From Gammaproteobacteria bacterium (GTDB taxonomy: Bacteria; Pseudomonadota; Gammaproteobacteria; Francisellales; CACEW01): a DNA stretch of 64,000 nucleotides. Below the pieces are notes generated by a model that had not been told where the DNA came from, ran no database searches, and worked only from the letters and a program-made list of their open reading frames with translations. The stretch covers positions 397,866-461,865 of the forward strand of contig JAUSAW010000002.1 of NCBI GenBank assembly GCA_030652335.1, written 5' to 3'. The position numbers and the translations under genes are program-made. Positions 2,406-49,173 of the stretch are shown in pieces; position 1 is the stretch's first letter, and each line of letters starts with the position of its first letter.

Positions 2406-4565
2406 ATGTATAGCTCACCAGCCCCTGTTATGTATAACTTAAAAGCCCCTGAAGGCTCATTTCAAAATCCGCATGTACTTACCATCCCCTATGATGAAGT
2501 TACGCCACCTCTCATGCTTAAACTATATAACTCATTCACCCACATAAGTTGGGGGGGATGGGGCAGCCCAGATTATAAATATGAACACGTCGTTTTAAAA
2601 TTAAATGCTGATCTATTAAAAGCCTTACTAGCAACTACCGAAATTAAAGGGCTGCAAAAAGATTGGTTAACATTTGTTCTGGATGGCATAAAACGAAGCC
2701 CGATTAAGACTCTTAGGGTCGACGCTTCTGGCATTAAATTTAAATCCACTTCAACGGCTGAAGCAGGAGCTGGGGCAAGCTCTCATTTAGTCAAGGCTTC
2801 CACTGCTACATTCAGTTCTCCTTCATCGACTCGAACCAGAGCAAGCGTAACCTCCCCTTCACCAACCTCAACACTTACTACCGAGGATTTCAAAACTTTT
2901 ATTGATTCCCTTGATACCGTTAATAGGGAACCATCCGTTTACCCTGTATTAGCAAGCTTAGATATTAGCAACTGTAACTTAACTCCAGACGATTTACTTT
3001 ATGCTGTAAGCAATTGCCTCTCTAGCTTCTACAGGGCCCTTGGGAATAAGGGAAATCCTAGCGCTAGCACATTCAAAACTCCTGAGATAGTAAACCGTGA
3101 ACTGCTGGTCTTTCAAGTGCCCGCCCTCATAGAAAATGAACCTACAACCCCCTCAGAAGAACGGAAAAAATTCACGACTTCTACAACAGACTCAACCACT
3201 ATAATCCCCTCTAAAATTTACGAAAATCCCTTTGTGCCTATAGTAACCAGTCACGGATATCCACCCTTTAAATACATTGGCGTAGTTTTTATCGATGAAA
3301 GCACCTATAACGAGGCCATGAAGCCTAAACCAATCTATCCAAGAGATTCTATGGGGAATTTTAGCATCGTTGCATGCAATACAATTAAATCTTCGGGCCC
3401 CATCCTAACCAAGGAACATATCCTATTATTGATCTCTCAATATACTCGACCGGACCCCAGAAACACACCAGAAGAAACCTTGCTGCTAGCAAAGTTTCAA
3501 GACGAAGCGCGTATACGAGCGGATAAACCTGCATTAATGGAAAGTCATAAAAAAATATTGGAAGAAAAAACCAAAGCAGAGAAAATCGCCAAAAAAACAG
3601 ATACATTAGTCGAGACTGTCAAGTCTGCATTGGAAAATGCTAAATCAAAAAAACGCCGGGACCTAACAAACGAAGAAATTGACCAAGTTTATCTTAAGCT
3701 TTCTAGAGCCTGTGTTTTTAATACTCTTAATGAAACATGGGTGCCAAGAGCACTAAAACTCACAATAGAGGCAGCAGTGACAAGAGCGAAACTTGCTGAA
3801 ACTAGTGCCATTGAGAGCGCCAATGAGACGGCAGCAGAAGCAAGGCGAAATGATGCCGCCAAATTGCGTAAAGCCGAAAAAGCTAGATTTGAGAGCCAAA
3901 AGATCGAAGAGATTAGAAGAAATCTTATAACACCCCCAGCCAAAAGCTCGGCTGCAACTATGATTGACAAGTCAACTACTGAGACTTCATCACCTAAGCT
4001 TGCCCCTAAAGCTGCCCCAGCGCCAACTCCCGCCAGCCCTTCTGTCGAGAGCCCTGTTGTGGCTCAAGCTCATTATGGATCATTTGGACAAGCAACAGGA
4101 GCTACTGTAGGCTCCGGCTTGGGGCCTACTTTGCCTGGCGCTGCACCAAAACCTACATTACCTGATCAATCTAAAGCCGGTGGAATTGCAAGCGTAATCC
4201 GCAAGCTGCCAAGGATAGAAGCTAATGAAGCATCGAAGCCACTATTAGAAGAGCAGCGTGCTGCTAAGCAAACCTCTGCAGGAGCAGGCACGGGCGCAGC
4301 CAAAGTGAAGGATGCCGCGCAGCCTAGACGACCTCGATTAAATTTTGATATCATCGCTACTGATGATTATGGGAATCCAATACTTGATGCCAAAGGGAAT
4401 CCAGTGAAATTAGTACCTCTTACCTGCCCAACGTCTTTCTATGATAAACATACTGGCGGTTTATGCTTTCCTGGCTGCTGCCCACTTGAGCCAGAATATC
4501 AAGAGGCTCTACGCTATAAATCAACTGCGGAAGATGATGCTGCAACGGGCGCCTCTAAAGGCTAA
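2406..4565 (+). CDS. large orphan protein (719 aa) with S/T/P/A-rich linkers and a central K/E/A-rich coiled-coil-like region; effector-like
   Basis: Long ORF with RBS aaaggaatcatattATG and a terminator directly downstream. Composition is eukaryote-like: STSTAEAGAGASS..SPSSTRTRASVTSPSPTSTL, the KKILEEKTKAEKIAKK..AEARRNDAAKLRKAEKARFESQKIEE block, and a PKAAPAPTPASPS tract. The C-terminus is Cys-rich (LTCPTSF..GGLCFPGCCPLEPE). Confidence 0.7.
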   Translation: MYSSPAPVMYNLKAPEGSFQNPHVLTIPYDEVTPPLMLKLYNSFTHISWGGWGSPDYKYEHVVLKLNADLLKALLATTEIKGLQKDWLTFVLDGIKRSPIKTLRVDASGIKFKSTSTAEAGAGASSHLVKASTATFSSPSSTRTRASVTSPSPTSTLTTEDFKTFIDSLDTVNREPSVYPVLASLDISNCNLTPDDLLYAVSNCLSSFYRALGNKGNPSASTFKTPEIVNRELLVFQVPALIENEPTTPSEERKKFTTSTTDSTTIIPSKIYENPFVPIVTSHGYPPFKYIGVVFIDESTYNEAMKPKPIYPRDSMGNFSIVACNTIKSSGPILTKEHILLLISQYTRPDPRNTPEETLLLAKFQDEARIRADKPALMESHKKILEEKTKAEKIAKKTDTLVETVKSALENAKSKKRRDLTNEEIDQVYLKLSRACVFNTLNETWVPRALKLTIEAAVTRAKLAETSAIESANETAAEARRNDAAKLRKAEKARFESQKIEEIRRNLITPPAKSSAATMIDKSTTETSSPKLAPKAAPAPTPASPSVESPVVAQAHYGSFGQATGATVGSGLGPTLPGAAPKPTLPDQSKAGGIASVIRKLPRIEANEASKPLLEEQRAAKQTSAGAGTGAAKVKDAAQPRRPRLNFDIIATDDYGNPILDAKGNPVKLVPLTCPTSFYDKHTGGLCFPGCCPLEPEYQEALRYKSTAEDDAATGASKG

Positions 4566-4664: not shown

Positions 4665-4955
4665 ATGAATATCGTTTGCCAAGCTCCTGACTTGATTAGC
4701 TATATGCTTTCAGCGATCAGCACCTTTCGCAATAGGATGCCACAAATCTCGGATGCCGACTTGGATACCTTAAAACAGGCCATTGAATATCAACATCAAC
4801 TCTTACTAGGAAAAAGCCCCAGGGCCAATTCTTCTCAGCCCATGACTGAAATGAGTTTGAATGAGTTATTTTCTGTAGTCGTGCGCTGTGTAGACTGTGG
4901 CCAAACCCTAGCTCAGGCGTTAAGTGCTAGGGCCTATGACACAATGCATAATTAA
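4665..4955 (+). CDS. hypothetical protein (96 aa)
   Basis: ORF with RBS aaaggaagtactATG. No recognisable family. Confidence 0.4.
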   Translation: MNIVCQAPDLISYMLSAISTFRNRMPQISDADLDTLKQAIEYQHQLLLGKSPRANSSQPMTEMSLNELFSVVVRCVDCGQTLAQALSARAYDTMHN

Positions 4956-6173: not shown

Positions 6174-7859
6174 TTAAGAGTAAGCATTTTCATCCTCAGG
6201 CAAGGCTCTATAATCGTTAGGCGAAGCCAATGGTGAAGCGATATTAAGCACCACTGCATTCGCAGTCCTAGCATTCTGCGATAAGGGCACGTCGCTAATC
6301 ATTTCAATTACAGGGGGACTGATCACAGCCAGGCCACTAGTCGATGAAGTTTGGCGATGATGAAATGGCAGGCGAGGAGAAGGTAGTTCGACCGTTCTTT
6401 CAACAGAGTTTGCTTGGACGTCTAATAATGCCTGATTAACTATTTCATGAACCACTTCGGGGCGATCTTCTTCAGGGGCCTCTGATATTTTTACTAATCT
6501 ATCATGTAAACTATCAATCGCTGATTTAAACACATTGACATGATTATTACGCATTTCAATATTATATTGATTCCATACCCCAAGAACGACGGCCGCTAAA
6601 ATAAATACAGCTAAATATATCCTCTCTTTACTCTCTGGATTAGCTAAAGGATCCCCAGGTAATGTTGCTCTATAAATATTATTCATGGTCATCGCTTCAA
6701 ATATAGAGGATGCAATGCCCCATATAATTTTTGTCCAAAACTCCCTAGTGTTTGGTAGCGTACGCTCCCCATAGCCTAAACTACCCTCTGGCGGACATTT
6801 TGGTAAGCCTATTAATAGGCTTGGGTCCCTCACGGCGAGGTCATGATATAATTTCCTATAATCGAGAATTACCGGATCAATTTGAATTTGATAATTAAGT
6901 TCGGATAGAATAGCGCCAGCGGCATAGGCAAGGCAGATGAGAGCACCCACGCCCCACATAAAGCCTTTAAATAGCGCGCATTCCGAATCAATCCCGGCCC
7001 TATTTAATACAAACATAGTCCAATAAAGACCCATTGCTAACCCACCCATGGCACCTAATATACCAGGGATGATCAATCGCGATTTCGCAACCTTAGACTT
7101 TGGCAACCCTTTATAGTATTTCAACCTTTGATTCGGTACCACAGGATGACGGATTCGTATAGATCTAACTAAGGCCTCTTGTGAAAGATAGGATACAAAA
7201 CCAATGCCAAAAAATGCCGCATAGCAGCCTAATTGGATAGTGGGTTGAACTCCTAATCGATTATGGTCAACAAAAACAATGAAATCTGCTAAAGTGCCCG
7301 CAGCAAAAGTGGCATCTAATACTGGATGAAGCAATGCCGCCCATTGTTTTATAGTCAACGCGGTGCCTACATTTTTAAGCCAACCTTGATTATTTTTACA
7401 TTTTTTAATAAGCTGCAGTACGTCATAAATCTTCCCTTCTTCATCTGAGCCCGTTTGCAAATAAACGCTAGATAATGGAGAAGTAGCAATCGTTTCAACC
7501 AAGCTTGAAGGGGCCGGGTGACGAGACTGTTTAAAAACATAGGCTCCATAGGCAACTGTTGTAAACCCTGTTAGAACGGAGAGCATAATTTTTGCAAATG
7601 GTGGTAGGTTCTTAGGATTTAGACCCGCAAATATAACCACCAAGGAGTTTAAATAGGATTGGGCAAAACCAAAACCTGCAGTAGAAGCCAGCCTTGACGT
7701 GCTGGCAAACATATAAGTATGTCGCAGAGCATGATATGTCTTATCCCTACTTAGGAAGTACTGCCAGCGGCTTAATTCGACCAAACCAATTTTAGCGTTT
7801 GCACCCTCATGTGCCTGCGCTACAGTGATATACTTACTACGTGAAAAACAAGATCCCAT
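6174..7859 (-). CDS. orphan multi-pass membrane protein (561 aa) with an N-terminal MGSCFS motif; effector-like
   Basis: ATG at 7859 is preceded by ggaagaggtgcataATG (RBS). There are several hydrophobic helices and a polar C-terminal tail ending ..SPNDYRALPEDENAYS. No recognisable family. Confidence 0.7.
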   Translation of the reverse strand: MGSCFSRSKYITVAQAHEGANAKIGLVELSRWQYFLSRDKTYHALRHTYMFASTSRLASTAGFGFAQSYLNSLVVIFAGLNPKNLPPFAKIMLSVLTGFTTVAYGAYVFKQSRHPAPSSLVETIATSPLSSVYLQTGSDEEGKIYDVLQLIKKCKNNQGWLKNVGTALTIKQWAALLHPVLDATFAAGTLADFIVFVDHNRLGVQPTIQLGCYAAFFGIGFVSYLSQEALVRSIRIRHPVVPNQRLKYYKGLPKSKVAKSRLIIPGILGAMGGLAMGLYWTMFVLNRAGIDSECALFKGFMWGVGALICLAYAAGAILSELNYQIQIDPVILDYRKLYHDLAVRDPSLLIGLPKCPPEGSLGYGERTLPNTREFWTKIIWGIASSIFEAMTMNNIYRATLPGDPLANPESKERIYLAVFILAAVVLGVWNQYNIEMRNNHVNVFKSAIDSLHDRLVKISEAPEEDRPEVVHEIVNQALLDVQANSVERTVELPSPRLPFHHRQTSSTSGLAVISPPVIEMISDVPLSQNARTANAVVLNIASPLASPNDYRALPEDENAYS

Positions 7860-18296: not shown

Positions 18297-19910
18297 TTAT
18301 ACATAACCCAGGGCAGCCCCATTCTTGGCCAATAGCCCCAGCTCTAAATCAGGACGATTAAAGACGAAGGCTTGGCTAGGTTTTTCTACAGAAGCTTCCC
18401 TTAATACGACAATTTCTGCAATGAACTCGGCGAAGGTATCTTTATCTAAACCACCTTCTGCTAACTGTGCTTCTAAGTTATCTAGAGTATTGCTAAAGCA
18501 TATCACCCTAGGATCAGTAGGATCGCATTCCTTTAGCCAGCCTACTAAAGCCTTTAACTTCCTATACTCTCCTGCGCTAAAACCGGTGCTTAAGTCAACG
18601 CTATGCTCTTTAATAACCGGGCTCTCTGGCAGCGAGGCCTGATCAGTCGTGCTAGAACCAAAGGCATAGCAAATCGCCTGTTTAGCAGGAACATAGACTG
18701 TTTCAAAGAGTTTTTCTAAAGCCCAGGAATTGACGTTAATAGCCATAACGGATAAAAAATAGGTTTGTAAAAAAACGATTAGAGCTGGCGGTGCTTCATC
18801 CTCAGCATCTCCAGCCTTGGCCCTTTCCACACTTGAGGAATAGGCTAAATAAGCACCTACAACAACAAATACATATTTTGCAATATACTTTACTAAAGAA
18901 TGGTCCTTATCTTTATCGGTAAAAAAACCATCCTCGCCTTTGAGTGCTTTACCACCACGAACAAAAGGATCGACCAGATATAAGAGACCGTCCAACAAAT
19001 AACCCGAATAATTTATACAAGCGGTAATATTAAGGGCCGCAGAGCCTAAAGGAATTCTATCCACCACGGTATTTGATACTAACCAGCTATATAATGGATT
19101 ACCCACTAAAAAGCGCTGAGTTGAATCGGCCATGGTTAAGGCATAGGCAAAACAAATAAAACTAAATGATGAGACTAAACCAATGCTTCGTGCAGTAGAG
19201 ACCGGTTTTTTATAAGCAGCCAGTTCTTTGCCTTCAAGAGCATCGAAGGCGCATATAGCAGGATGATCTGCCCCGGCAATAATAGCGCTTATTTTTTTAT
19301 CTTCTAAGCAAAGCTGCGCCAAGCCGTTTGCCAGCAAATCGAAACTAGCATGTGTTAAAAAAGCCCCTTCTGTAACAACGGTAGCCCAGGTAAAAACTTG
19401 TGAAACCGCGCCACCTTCATCACAGCCTAGCAAATCCTTAAGCGCTACTTGCGTACCTTCTCCAAAAGGCCCTGCCTGCGCATAGCCAAAATATAATGCT
19501 AAGGGCAATAGTAGCAACAGGCCTGAGATATTTTCTTTCCAGTTCTCACGCCCAAGCCTGCCAAAGCTTTTGGTGCTTTTAACCGCGCGAATAATTAAAC
19601 TATCAAGAGAACCTCCCAATATGGCATTTAAGCTCCCCGATATGATCGCGCCAGGCCAGGCTAAATAAATAGGATTCTTATTGCCCTCTAAAGTTTGCAG
19701 AACATAACTACCAAAAAATATACTTTTGACTAGGAAACTTAAGATATTGGCTGTTATTTTTTGGGCCTGTCCTGGCACTCTCGCCCCGCTAAGTGCTGCC
19801 AATAGAATAGTTTGTTGATCTTTAGGCAAGATTTTTACAAGGGTAGATAATTGAGACACAATAGTCCCATCGATACGTCCATTTAACATGATATTTCTCC
19901 GAATAGGCAA
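18297..19910 (-). CDS. orphan polytopic membrane protein (about 530 aa); effector-like
   Basis: The track start is TTG at 19910. An in-frame ATG at 19889 (MLNGRIDG..) is the more likely start. Several TM helices, and a soluble C-terminal region (..LKECDPTDPRVICFSNTLDNLEAQLAEGG..). No recognisable family. Confidence 0.65.
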   Translation of the reverse strand: MPIRRNIMLNGRIDGTIVSQLSTLVKILPKDQQTILLAALSGARVPGQAQKITANILSFLVKSIFFGSYVLQTLEGNKNPIYLAWPGAIISGSLNAILGGSLDSLIIRAVKSTKSFGRLGRENWKENISGLLLLLPLALYFGYAQAGPFGEGTQVALKDLLGCDEGGAVSQVFTWATVVTEGAFLTHASFDLLANGLAQLCLEDKKISAIIAGADHPAICAFDALEGKELAAYKKPVSTARSIGLVSSFSFICFAYALTMADSTQRFLVGNPLYSWLVSNTVVDRIPLGSAALNITACINYSGYLLDGLLYLVDPFVRGGKALKGEDGFFTDKDKDHSLVKYIAKYVFVVVGAYLAYSSSVERAKAGDAEDEAPPALIVFLQTYFLSVMAINVNSWALEKLFETVYVPAKQAICYAFGSSTTDQASLPESPVIKEHSVDLSTGFSAGEYRKLKALVGWLKECDPTDPRVICFSNTLDNLEAQLAEGGLDKDTFAEFIAEIVVLREASVEKPSQAFVFNRPDLELGLLAKNGAALGYV

Positions 19911-33650: not shown

Positions 33651-34628
33651 CTATCTAGGATGAGCTTCTTTCCATGCATTCATGGCCGCAAGACGCCTAT
33701 CAAAAGCTAGGGTTTTTATTGTGGTCACAGCGGCCTCAGCGTGAGTGCTGGCAGGATTATTTTCAATAGCCCTAAGCGCAACGCGAAAAGCTTCCATCTT
33801 AACTTCACGGTCATCCGCTCCATGCCTTGCTAGGAATAGAACCGCAGAGGCATGCCCATACTTGAACGCCCCATGGATAAGACTTTTCGCAAAGTCGGCT
33901 CTTTCATCATTGGTCAGCACAGAGCTGGATATTAACAATCGAGCCATCTTATTAACGTTTCCTGTAATAGCGGCATAAGATAAGGCACTATCACCATTAT
34001 TTAAGAGGTATGCCCCATCACCGAATATCTTTTCGTAGAAATACTGCTTCGATCTCCTTGGCGATTCAGCTAATTCTTTTACCACAGCGTGATGCCCGGC
34101 TAATGCGGCTAGATCCAAAGGAGTTAAGCCAGCATCATTTTTAATCGTGCGGGATACACACAAAAGAATCATCGCCTTTACAAAGTCTAAATGGCCATTT
34201 TGAGCGGCGACGTGCAATAAGGTATTACCCAAATTATCAGTAGCGCTGCAATAGGCTCTTTTATGGTAAACTCGGCTAATATCACCATCAAAATAGGCTA
34301 CTGCATCTGATTGCCCAGTCTCAGCAAAATAATGCCATGCAGTTTTACCGCTCGAGTCTCTTAAAATAGTTGGGTCAATAATAATATTCGCATATGGACC
34401 AATACTCCGTTTTGGCGTTAAAAGATAAGCCATTTCGAAATCACCAAGTCTAGCTGCAAGATGTACAGGATACATGCCTTCACCTATATCGGTCGTTAAT
34501 AATTCGTATGCTGTAACATCATCATTTGTCATGCCTTGTCCTAGCCTCTCCAAAATAAATCTAGCCCTTGGAATTGCGTGACCTTCAATTGCAGTAATTA
34601 ATTGTGCCAAGTTCGGATTTGCATGCAT
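33651..34628 (-). CDS. ankyrin-repeat protein (about 6 repeats)
   Basis: 325 aa. Repeats include YPVHLAARLGDFEMAYLL, GNTLLHVAAQNGHLDFVKAMILL, GLTPLDLAALAGHHAVVKELA, GDSALSYAAITGNVNKMARLL and ..GHASAVLFLARHGADD. Confidence 0.9.
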   Translation of the reverse strand: MHANPNLAQLITAIEGHAIPRARFILERLGQGMTNDDVTAYELLTTDIGEGMYPVHLAARLGDFEMAYLLTPKRSIGPYANIIIDPTILRDSSGKTAWHYFAETGQSDAVAYFDGDISRVYHKRAYCSATDNLGNTLLHVAAQNGHLDFVKAMILLCVSRTIKNDAGLTPLDLAALAGHHAVVKELAESPRRSKQYFYEKIFGDGAYLLNNGDSALSYAAITGNVNKMARLLISSSVLTNDERADFAKSLIHGAFKYGHASAVLFLARHGADDREVKMEAFRVALRAIENNPASTHAEAAVTTIKTLAFDRRLAAMNAWKEAHPR

Positions 34629-42646: not shown

Positions 42647-42922
42647 TTAATGCTTGTAAATTTCTCGACGATGTCCAACAGTAATGACTAATATCAATAA
42701 CTCTTTATTTTTGATTTCACAGATTATGCGGTAATCGCCAACTCGATAACGCCATAAGCCGGATTTAGTCCCTACCAGAGGTTTTCCCATGGTTTTTGGG
42801 TTATGCCTAATTGCCAATCGCTCTTTTAAGTATTTTAAAATTTGATTTTGTACATGCGGATTTAGCTTTAAGAGATCTTCTAGCGCCTCACTATCAAATT
42901 TTATTTCCCAATTTCCTAACAC
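42647..42922 (-). CDS. RelE/ParE-superfamily type II toxin
   Basis: 91 aa. WEIKFDSEALEDLLKLNPHVQNQILKYL...GLWRYRVGDYRIICEIKNKELLILVITVGHRREIY is the classic RelE/StbE pattern. GTG start, overlapping the antitoxin stop. Confidence 0.85.
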   Translation of the reverse strand: MLGNWEIKFDSEALEDLLKLNPHVQNQILKYLKERLAIRHNPKTMGKPLVGTKSGLWRYRVGDYRIICEIKNKELLILVITVGHRREIYKH

Positions 42923-43115
42923 GCTTCTCCACCTCGTCTAAAGATATTTTAGGATTATTCTTTTCAAGCCTTGCAATGGCTATTAGGTAATCTTCTTGGT
43001 CTTCTAAATATTTCTCCAATGCTTTTTTGGCATAATAAGTTTTGGTACGGCCCGTGAATTCTGCTAAATTTTCGAGGCGCAACTCAAGTTCTTTGGGTAA
43101 ACGTAGGGTTAGCAT
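42894..43115 (-). CDS. ribbon-helix-helix (CopG/RelB-like) antitoxin
   Basis: MLTLRLPKELELRLENLAEFTGRTKTYYAKKALEKYLEDQEDY.. is an RHH fold signature. The likely start is ATG 43115, since the track start at 43151 adds an implausible MYYKSYIYREKK. It is upstream of and overlaps the toxin. Confidence 0.8.
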   Translation of the reverse strand: MLTLRLPKELELRLENLAEFTGRTKTYYAKKALEKYLEDQEDYLIAIARLEKNNPKISLDEVEKRVRKLGNKI

Positions 43116-43293
43116 TTTTTTCTCTCGATATATGTATGACTTGTAATACATATATTACAAATAAAGCGCTTTAAAGTCCAACCTTGTTTAGCATTAACCA
43201 TTGTATATAATTTAATCCATTCAAAAAAGATCATCATTCACCAGGCATAAAAAAAGGCCCTATTCAGGCCCTTCATATTTCAATTTAAAATAA

Positions 43294-44049
43294 CTAAGCG
43301 TGATCAGCAACAGCTGAAGACTCACTTGCCATCATACTACAACCCTTCAAAAACACCGTGGCATTTCCTATGTTTGAGATGGTAGCTTGAGTTGCATTTT
43401 TTAATGCAAGACTAGCTTGCACCGGACCGGTTTCTACATAGGCTCCAGCTGGACTATAACGCGGCGCAGGACCTACTGCCCATACGGACGTTCCAAAGGT
43501 ATGTCCCGCTACAAATGAAGGCGAATCAGAACTTACATCGCAAATTGCATCACAAAGCAGTCCAAAATCAACTCTGGCACAAGCGCCGGGGACAATACTG
43601 GTAAAATCACTAGCAGGTGCATCAAAGCAATCCCCTTCATAGGCATTACTAACTGGAGGTTTGTTTTCATCCCCATCTCTAACACAAACGATTACAACAT
43701 CACGACTACGCACATTAGGATATACCGCTTCGTCAGTGATAGAAAATGAGGTTAGAGGAAAGTCATTATAATAACCTCCAACGATTCCTCCACCTAAATA
43801 ATTTGTAGGAATAGCCATCGTGATTGACATATTGGTAATGGGGTTAGTAGCAGTTACAGTCAGATTGGCAGCGGTATAGAACTGGTTCCGATCATCTACT
43901 TCAGCCGTTTGACATGCAATGCTTCCACCAAAGTCAGCAGTCCATGCCGCTCCATTAGCCGGAATTCGGTGCAAAGTGCTAAATGCTTGACCTGTAGCAG
44001 GGCTCAGTAGACTTGCGATAGCTACTGCTAATGATTTAAATGTTGGCAT
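43294..44049 (-). CDS. secreted Cys-rich orphan protein, paralog 1 (251 aa)
   Basis: Signal peptide MPTFKSLAVAIASLLSPATGQA, RBS aggagaaaattATG, 8 Cys. It shares blocks with paralog 2 (NPITN.S, AYEGDC, VSSDS.S.VAGHT.G.S, ..SN.G...V...GC). Confidence 0.8.
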   Translation of the reverse strand: MPTFKSLAVAIASLLSPATGQAFSTLHRIPANGAAWTADFGGSIACQTAEVDDRNQFYTAANLTVTATNPITNMSITMAIPTNYLGGGIVGGYYNDFPLTSFSITDEAVYPNVRSRDVVIVCVRDGDENKPPVSNAYEGDCFDAPASDFTSIVPGACARVDFGLLCDAICDVSSDSPSFVAGHTFGTSVWAVGPAPRYSPAGAYVETGPVQASLALKNATQATISNIGNATVFLKGCSMMASESSAVADHA

Positions 44050-44079
44050 AATTTTCTCCTAAGGTTAAGTAACCCATCT

Positions 44080-44112
44080 ATATTAAGGGGTAAACCTTAA
44101 GGTTTTATTAAG
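44080..44112 (-). promoter_or_regulatory. PmrA-like promoter, site B: TTAA-N7-TTAA-N11-TAATAT
   Basis: Minus strand cTTAATAAAACCTTAAG (44112..44096), with TTAA halves at 44111..44108 and 44100..44097. After 11 nt comes the -10 hexamer TAATAT at 44085..44080, about 30 nt before the ATG at 44049. Confidence 0.65.
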
Positions 44113-44241
44113 AAAATCCATTATTTAAGATTTTTATAGCTTTATCAACAAACTAGCACCAATCACCAGGCATAAAAAAGGCCCATAAGAAAGCGTTTTT
44201 ACACACTCTCCTCGGAGCCCTTTATATAGTAATTCAAATAA

Positions 44242-45003
44242 CTAAGCTGGATGAACGCTAGTTGCAGACGCTTCTGATAATGGTTTGCAACCACCAAACA
44301 CTACCGCGACAGCACCGAGGTTTGAGACAGTGCCCTGAGTAACATTTAACAGTGGCAGGCTGGCGCCAGCGGGAGTTGCATCAGCATATGTGCCTAGTGG
44401 AACAAGTTGCCATGAAAATGGCGGTGGCACTAGCGATGCTCCAACAGTATGGCCCGCCACCAATGAAGATGAATCTGAACTTACAGCACAAGTCATATTG
44501 CTTTCTGTAGAATTGCTAAAGTGCAGCCTAATACAATCACCAGGAGCTATGACAGTAGTATCATCATATGCTGCATCGACACAATCCCCTTCATAGGCCC
44601 AAATTTCTGGCGTTTGTTGCTGCTTTCCATTTGGTGCACAAGCTATCAATGCACTGCGGCTCGCCACTCCAGGGTAAATTCCAGTATCATTAATAGAATA
44701 AGATGTGTAAGGCAGCTCAGGCGCATAAAAGCTTTCAGCATAAGCGCCTGCAGGACCGAAGGACAGTGGCATAGGGTCAGAAACATTAGTAATAGGATTA
44801 TAAATATTAATGTTTAAATTAATAAACGGAGCGCTTAAGCTGCGATCGTCTTCTTCAGCAATTAAGCAATTGTTAGAGCCTCCAAAAACAACGGTTAAGG
44901 TTCCATTATTGGCTTGAACTCGATGTATGGTGTTATAAACTTGGCCCAGGGCAGTGGCTATGAGGCTTGCCGTGGCGGTTAACAAACTTGCGATTCTTGG
45001 CAT
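44242..45003 (-). CDS. secreted Cys-rich orphan protein, paralog 2 (253 aa)
   Basis: Signal peptide MPRIASLLTATASLIATALGQ, RBS aggagtaatttATG. Colinear similarity to paralog 1, including conserved Cys positions. Confidence 0.8.
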   Translation of the reverse strand: MPRIASLLTATASLIATALGQVYNTIHRVQANNGTLTVVFGGSNNCLIAEEDDRSLSAPFINLNINIYNPITNVSDPMPLSFGPAGAYAESFYAPELPYTSYSINDTGIYPGVASRSALIACAPNGKQQQTPEIWAYEGDCVDAAYDDTTVIAPGDCIRLHFSNSTESNMTCAVSSDSSSLVAGHTVGASLVPPPFSWQLVPLGTYADATPAGASLPLLNVTQGTVSNLGAVAVVFGGCKPLSEASATSVHPA

Positions 45004-45032
45004 AAATTACTCCTTATGTTAAGTGCATGACT

Positions 45033-45065
45033 ATAATAACGACCAAATCTTAAGGTTTTATTAAG
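45033..45065 (-). promoter_or_regulatory. PmrA-like promoter, site A: TTAA-N7-TTAA-N11-TATTAT
   Basis: Minus strand cTTAATAAAACCTTAAG (45065..45049), then 11 nt, then TATTAT (45038..45033). The distal half-site overlaps the miaA stop codon (45061..45063). Confidence 0.65.
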
Positions 45066-45987
45066 AGATAATATTACTTAAGGCTTTTTTCGCTTTATCG
45101 ACTAAATCAGCATCATCGCTGTCCAGCCAGATCAAATCAGGCCAGGCTCTTAGCCAGGTGAACTGGCGTTTGGCTAATTGACGAGTAGCGACGATGGATT
45201 TTTCGATGGCCTCATCGAGGCTTAATTCGCCGTTTAAATACTGACAAACCTGGCGATAACCCACACAGCGAATGGAGGGTAATTTGTCAGTGAGATCACC
45301 CCGCTCTTGTAATTCTTTTACTTCATCAATAAAACCCTGGCTCATCATTAGCTTAAATCGTTCGGCGATTCTGGCATGTAAAATTTTGCGATCTTTTGGG
45401 GCTATGGCGAGAGCAATAATGGGATAAGGCAAAGGCTCCATTCCTGGGACCCATAATACAGATAAGGGGATGCCTGTTAACTCATAGACTTCTAAGGCAC
45501 GCTGAATTCTCTGCGAGTCTGTCGGCTTTATTTTAGCCACCGCATCGGGGTCGATACTTGCTAAACGCTGATGTAAGGCGGGCCAGCCTTGAACATTCGC
45601 CTCTTCCAATAATCTCTGGCGTATAGTCTCATCGGCTTTAGGTAATTCAGACAAGCCCTTACGCAAGGCATTAAAATAGAGCATTGTGCCGCCGACTAAT
45701 AAGGGGATCCGGTCTTTAGACAAACTGCTTTCGATTTCGCGCCTGGCATCATGATAAAAATCCGCCACCGAATAGGACTCAGCAGGGTCTTTTATATCGA
45801 TTAGTTTATGCGGGAATTCTTGTAATATTTCAGCAGAAGGCTTTGCCGTGCCGATTTCCATGCCTTTATAGATCATCGCCGAATCGACGCTAATAATATC
45901 GATGGGATAAAGCTTGGCTAATTCCATGGCTAATGCGGTTTTGCCGCTGGCGGTTGGGCCCATTAAAAAGATGACTGTATTCGTCAT
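45061..45987 (-). CDS. miaA: tRNA dimethylallyltransferase
   Basis: 308 aa with P-loop GPTASGKT, in the canonical position after mutL. Confidence 0.95.
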   Translation of the reverse strand: MTNTVIFLMGPTASGKTALAMELAKLYPIDIISVDSAMIYKGMEIGTAKPSAEILQEFPHKLIDIKDPAESYSVADFYHDARREIESSLSKDRIPLLVGGTMLYFNALRKGLSELPKADETIRQRLLEEANVQGWPALHQRLASIDPDAVAKIKPTDSQRIQRALEVYELTGIPLSVLWVPGMEPLPYPIIALAIAPKDRKILHARIAERFKLMMSQGFIDEVKELQERGDLTDKLPSIRCVGYRQVCQYLNGELSLDEAIEKSIVATRQLAKRQFTWLRAWPDLIWLDSDDADLVDKAKKALSNIIS

Positions 45988-47847: not shown

Positions 47848-47906
47848 GGTTTACCCTCGAAAAATACTTATAATAGCATAAATATAATTCGCTATTTTAC
47901 AGTTAT

Positions 47907-47938
47907 TTAATAAAACCTTAAGCTTAATCCAGTATATT
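47907..47938 (+). promoter_or_regulatory. PmrA-like promoter, site C: TTAA-N7-TTAA-N11-TATATT
   Basis: Plus strand TTAATAAAACCTTAAG (47907..47922), an exact 16-mer match to sites A and B. After 11 nt comes TATATT (47933..47938), 35 nt before the ATG at 47974. Confidence 0.7.
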
Positions 47939-47973: not shown

Positions 47974-49173
47974 ATGTATAATCCCTCTGATTTTTTAACG
48001 CAAAAGAAAATTACTGTAGACTTAGCAGTGGCTTTGAACAATAAAGATAGGTCTAAAATTAACGAAATTTTTCAAACCATTCCAAACTCACGCTCTAACG
48101 TCACATTCAAAGAAGATCGTATTAAACAATGCGTAAAACATGCACTCAAAAACCAATTATTAGACCTACTTCAAAATATGATAGATGATAATATAGTTGA
48201 TCTAGCGAAGCTATATATGGATTTTACCGACTTTTCTTTACCAGGATTATCTGCAGCATTTTTGCTTTCCAAAGAGATTAACAAGTATCAAGCTCAAAAA
48301 ATATTTATTAGCATGCTTACTCAAAAGTTTTTTATTACGGCAGAAACAGCTTTTACAGCATTCCCTTCAGCTATTATAGAAAGCGAAGAATGCTTATATA
48401 CTGCCATATGTTATGATGTGGCCTTGGCTGAAAAACTACTAGCTGCTAGGGCAAAATTTGATCCTAATTCCGCTCGGTCTCAACGAGATTTTTACAGGGC
48501 TGCTTGTAGTGGCAACATTGATACTATGTTATTTTTTTTAGAACATGGTTTTAGTATTGATTCTGTTATCGAAATGGCAGTGACTAACTTCTCACAATCA
48601 TATATACAAGGTTTAGACCCCGATCCGTTTAAGGGCTTAGAAAAAAATAAAAAAGGGATACTGTGTTTAGTGCATGAAGGCGCTGATTTATATAAACAGT
48701 CCTCGGACCCGGCAAACAAATCGGCCTTACAAATATTGCATGGAGCAATAGCTCAACTAAATGCAAGTGATAGATTGTCAAAAGCTAATACGCTAAGTGC
48801 ATTTACCAAAGAATTAATTGTTGAATCTGCAAAAGCCAGACGATCAGCGGCAGTATACACACATTTATACACGAACAAACTTAACTCTACTTTTGATGCT
48901 TATCATAAAATGATAATAAATAATGAAATCAAGGAATTAAAACTCTCTTTAGAATTTTTAAAACCTTATAGCTGGGAAATTGCCGCCTTAGAGGAAGTGC
49001 ATAAATACACCACTGACGCCAACCCTGACGCTGGCAAAATCATTGCAAGCTATTTAAGTCTTCATAAAGCCATTGAAGCCGCCCCAATTGCTGTAACACC
49101 TATGCTCGCAGCTTGTGCTGGAGCAGGCATAACGGCTGAAAGCGAGAAGTGCAAGCAAGCAAGCCTAAATTAA
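47974..49173 (+). CDS. orphan protein (399 aa) with degenerate ankyrin-like repeats; effector-like
   Basis: RBS aaggatatctaaaaATG. Ank-like segments are ECLYTAICYDVALAEKLLAARAKFDPN, RDFYRAACSGNIDTMLFFLEHGFSIDS and ..LCLVHEGADLYKQ. It occupies the slot where amiB sits in enterobacteria. Confidence 0.7.
   Translation: MYNPSDFLTQKKITVDLAVALNNKDRSKINEIFQTIPNSRSNVTFKEDRIKQCVKHALKNQLLDLLQNMIDDNIVDLAKLYMDFTDFSLPGLSAAFLLSKEINKYQAQKIFISMLTQKFFITAETAFTAFPSAIIESEECLYTAICYDVALAEKLLAARAKFDPNSARSQRDFYRAACSGNIDTMLFFLEHGFSIDSVIEMAVTNFSQSYIQGLDPDPFKGLEKNKKGILCLVHEGADLYKQSSDPANKSALQILHGAIAQLNASDRLSKANTLSAFTKELIVESAKARRSAAVYTHLYTNKLNSTFDAYHKMIINNEIKELKLSLEFLKPYSWEIAALEEVHKYTTDANPDAGKIIASYLSLHKAIEAAPIAVTPMLAACAGAGITAESEKCKQASLN

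Follow-up and report, generated by a model that had tools for sequence, protein, structure and literature searches.

Organization of the X1 and X2 genes

The genes described here lie in a 64,000-nucleotide stretch of DNA from an uncultured gammaproteobacterium (assembly GCA_030652335.1, contig JAUSAW010000002.1, positions 397,866 to 461,865 of the forward strand). This whole stretch is hereafter referred to as the window, and all coordinates are those of the window. Two paralogous genes, designated X1 and X2, are arranged in tandem, both on the minus strand, inside the interval between miaA and hfq. On the evidence given below we lean, without strong conviction, toward the view that the X product is a lineage-restricted protein, exported by the Sec pathway and disulfide-bonded, that is regulated by a PmrA/QseB-type system and acts outside the cytoplasm, with a surface or secreted fate favored.

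X1 (43294..44049, minus) encodes a protein of 251 amino acids (aa) with seven Cys residues and is the copy distal to miaA. X2 (44242..45003, minus) encodes 253 aa and adjoins miaA (45061..45987); both sets of coordinates come from the list of open reading frames (ORFs) and include the stop codon. On the other side of the two genes, Pfam assignments identified a ParE/RelB-like pair and then hfq. By BLASTP, X1 and X2 were 42% identical over their full length (E 2e-58). A first-pass annotation of this DNA had described two ORFs of 251 and 253 aa as colinear paralogs with about 35–40% identity as estimated by eye; both ORFs are present on the minus strand at the coordinates given above, and the measured identity is slightly above that estimate. 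The sequence blocks listed there as shared, NPITN[MV]S, AYEGDC[FV]DA, VSSDS[PS]S[FL]VAGHT[FV]G, and [IV]SN[IL]G...GC, were all found in the alignment.

Structure of the duplicated unit

Direct-repeat analysis and DNA alignment indicated that the similarity of the two copies runs past the coding sequence on both flanks. The copy-to-copy spacing was 925 bp for the 3′ block, 948 bp within the coding sequence, and 953–954 bp for the blocks of the promoter and the ribosome-binding site, and the duplicated unit was estimated to be about 0.95 kb (927–955 bp), with indels between the copies. The unit of about 925 bp inclusive of the 3′ flank and promoter, as proposed at first pass, was thus confirmed, with spacings that differ by block. 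The promoter block of 75 nt is 76% identical between the copies and includes an identical core of 18 nt. The block carrying the ribosome-binding site and start codon (D5, 28 nt) is 86% identical; within it are located the Shine-Dalgarno sequences AGGAGA of X1 (44055..44060, minus) and AAGGAG of X2 (45010..45015, minus).

A 38-nt block (repeat family D3, 79% identity; GGGCCTTTTTTTATGCCTGGTGA), located at and just after the X1 terminator (43225..43262, minus) and matched by its partner at 44150–44187, represents the 3′ limit of the unit. The 5′ boundary is marked by a degraded copy of the last approximately 50 nt of miaA (44113..44165, minus), which was detected upstream of the X1 promoter box by alignment with the miaA 3′ end, indicating that the duplicated unit began inside miaA. 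By RNA folding, X1 is followed by an intrinsic-terminator-like hairpin (43247..43274, minus) with a 9-bp GC-rich stem and then a U run, and X2 by a terminator-like compound hairpin (44172..44223, minus), again with a U run. The 95-nt region including the X2 terminator (44150–44244) gave a folding energy of −31.5 kcal/mol (z −4.15), and none of 200 shuffled sequences was equally stable. As the unit carries promoter, coding sequence, and terminator, each copy represents a separate transcription unit. These observations altogether indicate that the X1/X2 pair was produced by tandem duplication in place.

Right after each terminator U run, 11 nt (ATGCCTGGTGA) are kept in both copies (43225..43250 and 44150..44175). 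The sequence that follows it at X1 (AATGATGATC...) is faintly like GATGATGCTGA of the miaA 3′ end, and this resemblance may mark the place where recombination occurred.

The coding sequences of X1 and X2 are 53% identical at the nucleotide level and 41% identical at third positions. Synonymous sites are saturated (pS 0.70), indicating that the duplication is old, and pN was 0.39; the resulting dN/dS was roughly 0.26, a value that is approximate because dS is saturated. X1 and X2 are under purifying selection. Furthermore, the promoter, ribosome-binding site, and terminator blocks are better conserved than the saturated synonymous sites, indicating that these elements have been selected and that both genes are functional.

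These results bear on the possibility that X1 and X2 are decaying or functionless duplicates, of which the flanks have been conserved by recent duplication or gene conversion. Such an origin would fit with the small size of the family, which has three members, with the odd seventh Cys residue (C166) of X1, and with the GC content at third positions, which is lower for X1 (0.29) and X2 (0.33) than for the neighboring housekeeping genes miaA (0.47) and mutL (0.43), the X values resembling those of other orphans. The ORFs are intact, however, and the duplication is old as judged from pS, yet pN is only 0.39; all six shared Cys residues are retained even in a relative at 22–25% identity; and Shine-Dalgarno sequence, promoter box, −10 hexamer, and terminator are all kept in both copies despite the randomization of third positions. 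Decay or artefact is highly improbable on these grounds, and was rejected.

Promoter box shared by five genes

Upstream of X1, a PmrA/BasR-type direct repeat, CTTAAT-AAAAC-CTTAAG, is located at 44096..44112 (minus), followed 10 nt downstream by the −10 hexamer TAATAT (44080..44085, minus). The identical box (CTTAATAAAACCTTAAG) is present upstream of X2 at 45049..45065 (minus), where it overlaps the miaA stop codon (45061–45063), and is again followed after 10 nt by a −10 hexamer, TATTAT (45033..45038, minus). Three more boxes of the same organization were found in the window: TTTAATAAAACCTTAAG at 47906..47922 (plus), with TATATT after 10 nt and the ATG of an orphan gene (47974..49173) 51 nt from the box; CTTAATATTTCCTTAAG at 59994..60010 (minus), with TATAAT after 10 nt and the ATG of an orphan (59166..59948) 45 nt from the box; and TTTAAGAAAACCTTAAG at 60095..60111 (plus), with TAGACT after 10 nt and the ATG of an orphan (60158..60751) 46 nt from the box.

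The frequency of the motif was compared with expectation. The loose pattern YTTAAK-N5-YTTAAK gave 10 matches in the window against 0.87 expected, and the core motif TTAAK-N4-CCTTAAG gave 5 against 0.07 expected, a number reached in 0 of 100 shuffles. A box within 150 nt upstream was found for only 5 of the 48 ORFs in the window, namely X1, X2, and the three orphans above, and its distance from the ATG was always 45–51 nt. Each of the five intergenic boxes has a TAnnnT hexamer after a spacer of exactly 10 nt, and this arrangement was seen for none of the five remaining loose matches. The evidence for a shared promoter architecture of the five genes is thus convincing, and the PmrA-like promoter noticed at first pass was borne out, box, 10-nt spacer, and −10 hexamer preceding five orphans of the window. 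The remaining loose matches, starting at 4951, 8456, 16208, 37150, and 41766, lie within coding regions or at their ends and have no −10 hexamer at the right distance; these five alone exceed the number expected window-wide.

With respect to the regulator, the direct repeat of YTTAAK hexamers with a 5-bp spacer is that of PmrA/BasR/QseB-type promoters, and the box covers the −35 position and keeps a constant distance to the −10 hexamer, as in promoters activated by OmpR-family regulators. The tandem repeat, its 5-bp spacing and 11-bp period, and its location next to the −10 hexamer, at the upstream site otherwise taken by the −35 element, are the same as in PmrA-dependent promoters, both those of the ceg/cig genes and those carrying the enterobacterial box. 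The targets are likewise lineage-specific orphans scattered among housekeeping genes: none of the five products has a match in Pfam or NCBIfam. X1 and X2 thus appear to belong to a small co-regulated set, and a regulator of the PmrA/BasR/QseB type within the OmpR family is suggested by the box. According to a study by Zusman and colleagues in 2007, the PmrA element of Legionella and Coxiella reportedly consists of cTTAATatT units repeated in tandem, immediately before the −10. Experimentally defined PmrA boxes of enterobacteria are CTTAAG-N5-xTTAAT and CTTAAT-N5-CCTAAG, and the half-sites and 5-bp spacer of X1 and X2 match the consensus (PMC3973317).

Since the enterobacterial box controls genes for the envelope and for modification of lipopolysaccharide (PMC3973317), X1 and X2 could be periplasmic or envelope-resident proteins of a PmrA-type regulon for envelope remodelling or stress that never leave the envelope, for instance proteins that inhibit lysozyme or protease of a host or that bind metal or cationic peptides. 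The products of the three other box genes are unlike those of an envelope regulon, as they have no signal peptides and are helical or low-complexity orphans. We regard envelope residence as a minority view that deserves to be kept in sight.

The same box may also be read toward Legionella. PmrAB is the activator of about 40 effector genes in L. pneumophila (PMC6989116), and pmrA/B mutations change the expression of proteins secreted by the type IV and by the type II route (PMC4273665). X1 and X2 might accordingly be effectors of a Dot/Icm-type IVB secretion system directed at a eukaryotic host, in the manner of the PmrA-regulated ceg/cig genes; the box and its location in place of the −35 element agree with the PmrA-dependent effector promoters reported for Legionella and Coxiella, and the genes sharing the box are all orphans. 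Also encoded in the window are an ankyrin-repeat protein (33651..34628, minus; Ank_2, E 3e-24) and several large orphans, among them the ORFs 2406..4565 (719 aa), 6174..7859 (561 aa), and 18297..19910 (537 aa), all without Pfam or NCBIfam match; this gene content is reminiscent of host-associated bacteria. Against this stand the finding of no dot/icm gene among the scanned ORFs of the window, the organism not being established as a member of Legionellales, and the absence of any match above noise to the effector models of NCBIfam. Two of the five box genes here, X1 and X2, bear predicted Sec signals and conserved Cys residues, which Dot/Icm effectors typically do not. The designation of the regulation as virulence-type in the first-pass annotation presumes Legionella- or Coxiella-like biology.

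As to the three other genes with the box, the orphan 47974..49173 (399 aa, plus, GC 36%) is flanked by tsaE and mutL, two genes that adjoin each other in two related contigs (L001 and L002). The orphans 59166..59948 (260 aa, minus) and 60158..60751 (197 aa, plus) are divergent and have in common a 210-bp intergenic region with two boxes; the product of the latter is rich in S, A, G, and P in its C-terminal part.

Predicted export, cysteines, and composition

Signal peptides were assessed by heuristics only (basic n-region, h-region of about 10–15 residues, and small residues at −3/−1). Sec-type signal peptides are predicted at codons 1–22 of both X1 (MPTFKSLAVAIASLLSPATGQA; 43984..44049, minus) and X2 (MPRIASLLTATASLIATALGQV; 44938..45003, minus). 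The n-region includes a basic residue (K5 in X1, R3 in X2), the hydrophobic core is about 12 residues long in both, with a maximum Kyte-Doolittle value (11-residue window) of 2.1 for X1 and 1.7 for X2 within residues 6–17, and AXA-like small residues for −3/−1 were found at residues 18 and 22 of X1 and residue 18 of X2, the likely cleavage site of X2 being predicted after ATA at residue 18. By this heuristic assessment both N-termini have the properties of substrates for Sec and signal peptidase I, in agreement with the signal peptides proposed at first pass. A lipoprotein was ruled out, as there is no lipobox L-x-x-C and the first Cys is residue 46 in both X1 and X2. Likewise a type IV pilin was ruled out, since the N-termini (MPTFKSLAV... 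and MPRIASLLT...) are without prepilin motif.

Six Cys residues (C46, C122, C141, C157, C170, and C237) are invariant in X1, X2, and the sole outside relative, P0003, and are thus kept across three sequences of 22–43% identity. The conservation of Cys positions between the two ORFs, which had been noted from the two copies, therefore extends to the relative. Such conservation, together with the predicted export, suggests that the residues are oxidized to disulfides.

The mature forms of X1 and X2 are acidic, with an isoelectric point of about 4.3. Lys accounts for 1.6% (4/251) of X1 and 0.8% (2/253) of X2, against 4.7% of P0003. The number of N-x-S/T sequons was 4 against 2.2 expected for X1 (P 0.16) and 6 against 2.7 expected for X2 (P 0.035); the enrichment is modest and marginal, and the description of both proteins as rich in sequons is weakly supported. 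Both X1 (SMMASESSAVADHA) and X2 (KPLSEASATSVHPA) carry a 14-residue tail rich in S, A, and E past the last Cys, and P0003 is without this tail.

The same indications of export and disulfides that support a surface or secreted protein are shared by the envelope-resident alternative, and an isoelectric point of about 4.3 would suit a protein that binds cations or cationic peptides; no gene for a type II secretion system was seen in the 64-kb window, which is again in line with retention in the envelope. On the other hand, X1 and X2 showed no similarity to known inhibitor families. For the Dot/Icm alternative, the short tails, which are absent in P0003, consist largely of small and polar residues and include one Glu, in the manner of C-terminal effector signals rich in small, polar, and Glu residues, and a Lys content as low as that of X1 and X2 would limit ubiquitination in the host cytosol. 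The resemblance of the C-termini to such signals is weak, however, and a Sec-type signal together with six conserved Cys residues would imply folding in the periplasm, whereas Dot/Icm substrates come from the cytoplasm. We therefore consider Dot/Icm delivery improbable, clearly more so than residence in the envelope.

Predicted fold

AlphaFold2 modeling with two sequences gave a pLDDT of 45, and with three sequences, for the mature part of X2, a pLDDT of 57 and a pTM of 0.47. An all-beta architecture of about 18 strands was seen in both of these low-confidence models. In Foldseek searches of PDB and BFVD, the models matched only generic two-domain proteins of the beta-sandwich or jelly-roll type, including CUB-EGF-CUB, SIDT ectodomains, botulinum HA70, a Bacteroides surface glycan-binding protein, and PHM; the best matches had E-values of 1e-5 to 1e-4 and probabilities of 0.95–0.99, at 6–10% identity and rmsd of 13–28 Å. 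No internal sequence repeat was detected between the two halves of X. On these models, X probably consists of two beta-sandwich lobes, with no assignment to a family. The beta structure predicted at first pass is thus reproduced, in models of low confidence, and the statement that there is no recognizable fold holds as far as a specific family is concerned but has to be modified by the all-beta model and its generic two-domain matches.

CUB1-EGF-CUB2 of MASP/C1r, SIDT1/2, HA70/HA3, and the Bacteroides surface glycan-binding protein B resemble the X model in being all-beta and two-lobed, and are extracellular binding modules, often disulfide-bonded. The differences are that TM-scores are 0.2–0.3, identity is 6–10%, the pLDDT of the query is 57, and no single family stands out.

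Two other structural assignments were ruled out: an outer-membrane beta-barrel, as there is neither an OMP_b-brl-type match in Pfam nor a C-terminal aromatic residue (the C-termini of the three family members being ...ADHA, ...VHPA, and ...CQPV), and a subunit of chaperone-usher fimbriae, as no Fimbrial or SCPU match was found in Pfam at E <= 10. The neighbors of X1 and X2 are miaA, ParE/RelB, hfq, and mutL, with no genes for usher or chaperone.

Distribution of the family and variation of the miaA–hfq interval

Neither X1 nor X2 gave any match in Pfam or NCBIfam (E <= 10) or in PDB (phmmer and profile, E <= 10). In PHROGs (E <= 1) the only match was phrog_35842 to X2, at E 0.032, and no match was found on plasmids by tblastn. 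Membership by sequence in a curated family or solved structure was thus not found, in agreement with the first-pass annotation; neither Pfam, NCBIfam, PHROGs, PDB sequences, nor Foldseek provided a recognizable family. HMMER search was then extended to 1.84 billion cluster representatives of about 15 billion proteins. The X1/X2 profile recovered X1, X2, P0003 (254 aa, E 4e-12), and a weak hit, P0004, with SLH and Ig-like repeats. The E-value of P0004 (5.7e-5) is summed over four repeats and its hhalign probability was 8%, so that it was set aside as noise, and an identity of X as an Ig-like repeat was rejected at the same time, with no significant profile match. The true members are thus three among these representatives; a three-sequence profile search of the representatives gave nothing further, no additional relative emerged when genome contigs and metagenome contigs were scanned, and no publication was found that mentions the related metagenome-assembled genomes (MAGs) or SRA accessions. 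As judged from these searches, X1 and X2 of the uncultured gammaproteobacterium form, with P0003, a genuine orphan family of three members, in line with the novel family suggested at first pass.

P0003 is encoded by a single-copy gene on a 7.8-kb Logan contig (L001) with the gene order tsaE-mutL-miaA-X-hfq-hflX-hflK. X2 is its positional ortholog, both adjoining miaA, and P0003 is also closer to X2 (E 1e-15) than to X1 (E 2e-6) by tblastn. Protein identity between the window and L001 was 95% for Hfq, 84% for MutL, 79% for MiaA, 76% for HflX, 64% for TsaE, and 53% for HflK, and 22–25% for X. As X evolves far faster than its neighbors, yet under purifying selection, a surface or secreted role facing the host or the environment is suggested. 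The difference between 22–25% for X and 53–95% for the neighbors is less typical of envelope-resident than of surface or host-facing proteins.

In two other relatives, L006 (MiaA 77% identical to that of the window) and L007 (64%), the gap between miaA and hfq is empty. In a group of MAGs (L002/L086–L088, L090, L091, and L094), which carry the label 'Gammaproteobacteria bacterium' only, the gap (about 3216–6179 in L002) holds a gene for a large protein (718 aa where complete) and an OMP_b-brl gene. The large protein includes an Ala/Glu/Arg-rich repeat, a transmembrane segment, and a Cys-containing C-terminal region, and the OMP_b-brl protein is 232–249 aa in length, is encoded in the opposite orientation, and matches PF13505 in the relatives L086–L095. 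Hidden homology of these two genes to X was tested and rejected; they are unrelated. Since the gap is filled differently among relatives, the miaA–hfq interval is considered to be a hotspot for lineage-specific genes. On the gene orders compared, X is itself best described as an insertion present in two sampled lineages.

The window carries another insertion in the same interval, between X1 and hfq. It consists of a ParE toxin gene (PF05016, E 9e-16) and a gene for a RelB/DUF6290/TraY-like antitoxin, located at 42647..42922 and 42894..43151 (minus), with a 29-nt overlap and a GC content of 35%.

Discussion

The sequence of events that we propose starts, in an uncultured lineage of gammaproteobacteria, with the placement of an X gene between miaA and hfq, where the gap is normally empty. 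An old duplication in place then copied the unit of about 0.95 kb, taking the last approximately 50 nt of miaA together with promoter, coding sequence, and terminator. A response regulator of the PmrA/QseB type may bind the box over the −35 position and activate each X promoter, and the product would be taken to the periplasm by a cleavable Sec-type signal peptide. There it is expected to fold as an all-beta protein, acidic and low in lysine, that probably has two beta-sandwich lobes, and oxidation of the six invariant Cys residues to three disulfides would lock the fold. The final site of action would be outside the cytoplasm, in the periplasm, on the surface, or in the medium after secretion by a type II system, where X could serve in binding or in interaction with the host or environment. 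Among these locations, surface exposure or secretion, for instance by a type II system, appears most likely to us; the rapid divergence and the co-regulation with other orphans suggest a role facing the host or the environment.

Several observations weigh against this interpretation. The gene for P0003 on L001 has no box and starts 38 nt past the miaA stop codon, indicating that regulation through the box is not ancestral to the family, and the loose pattern was absent from 864 kb of 95 other loci, about 60 kb of which come from close relatives. The export signal is a heuristic call, and dN/dS is approximate for the reason given above. The fold models reach pLDDT values of just 45 and 57, with Foldseek TM-scores of 0.2–0.3, and neither functional residues nor a ligand-binding motif could be recognized in X1 or X2. 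The view of gene content is that of the 64-kb window.

Legionella produces Ntt ('novel type II-secreted') proteins, which are lineage-restricted substrates of type II secretion. X resembles the Ntt proteins in its predicted Sec signal, small-to-medium size, lack of recognizable domains, and narrow range, and differs in having no sequence similarity beyond its own three-member family. A further parallel is that type II secreted proteins belong to the PmrA/B regulon of Legionella (PMC4273665).

A more specific form of the surface or secreted reading is that X1, X2, and P0003 found a new family of Sec-exported, triple-disulfide, double beta-sandwich proteins used by a host-associated gammaproteobacterium against a eukaryotic host, and that in the lineage of the window the gene was recruited into the regulon by a PmrA-type box evolving at the miaA stop codon. 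We consider this form unlikely, though worth stating for its consequences. The paucity of lysine and the roughly twofold excess of sequons would hint that the protein ends in a host compartment. Delivery could take place in two steps, by Sec and then by a type II or type IV secretion system, or else X1 and X2 could take part in a coordinated attack from 'outside plus inside' together with the cytoplasmic effector-like orphans under the same box.

Current understanding would not be overturned by these proposals, as orphan secreted proteins and PmrA-type regulons are already familiar. Their significance would grow if the genome were found to encode a type IVB system and if the proteins reach the host cell. 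If the proposed reading is correct, X is a protein family without detectable relatives and with an unsolved fold, and the five promoters, each consisting of box, 10 nt, and TAnnnT, would provide a compact training set with which the regulon of an uncultured lineage could be predicted across the genome; this regulon is probably the set of genes by which the organism interacts with its host. The X locus would then represent a natural example of the birth of genes for secreted proteins and of their wiring into a regulon at the conserved miaA–hfq junction, in the order of insertion between miaA and hfq, gain of the box on the miaA stop codon, and tandem duplication together with promoter and terminator.

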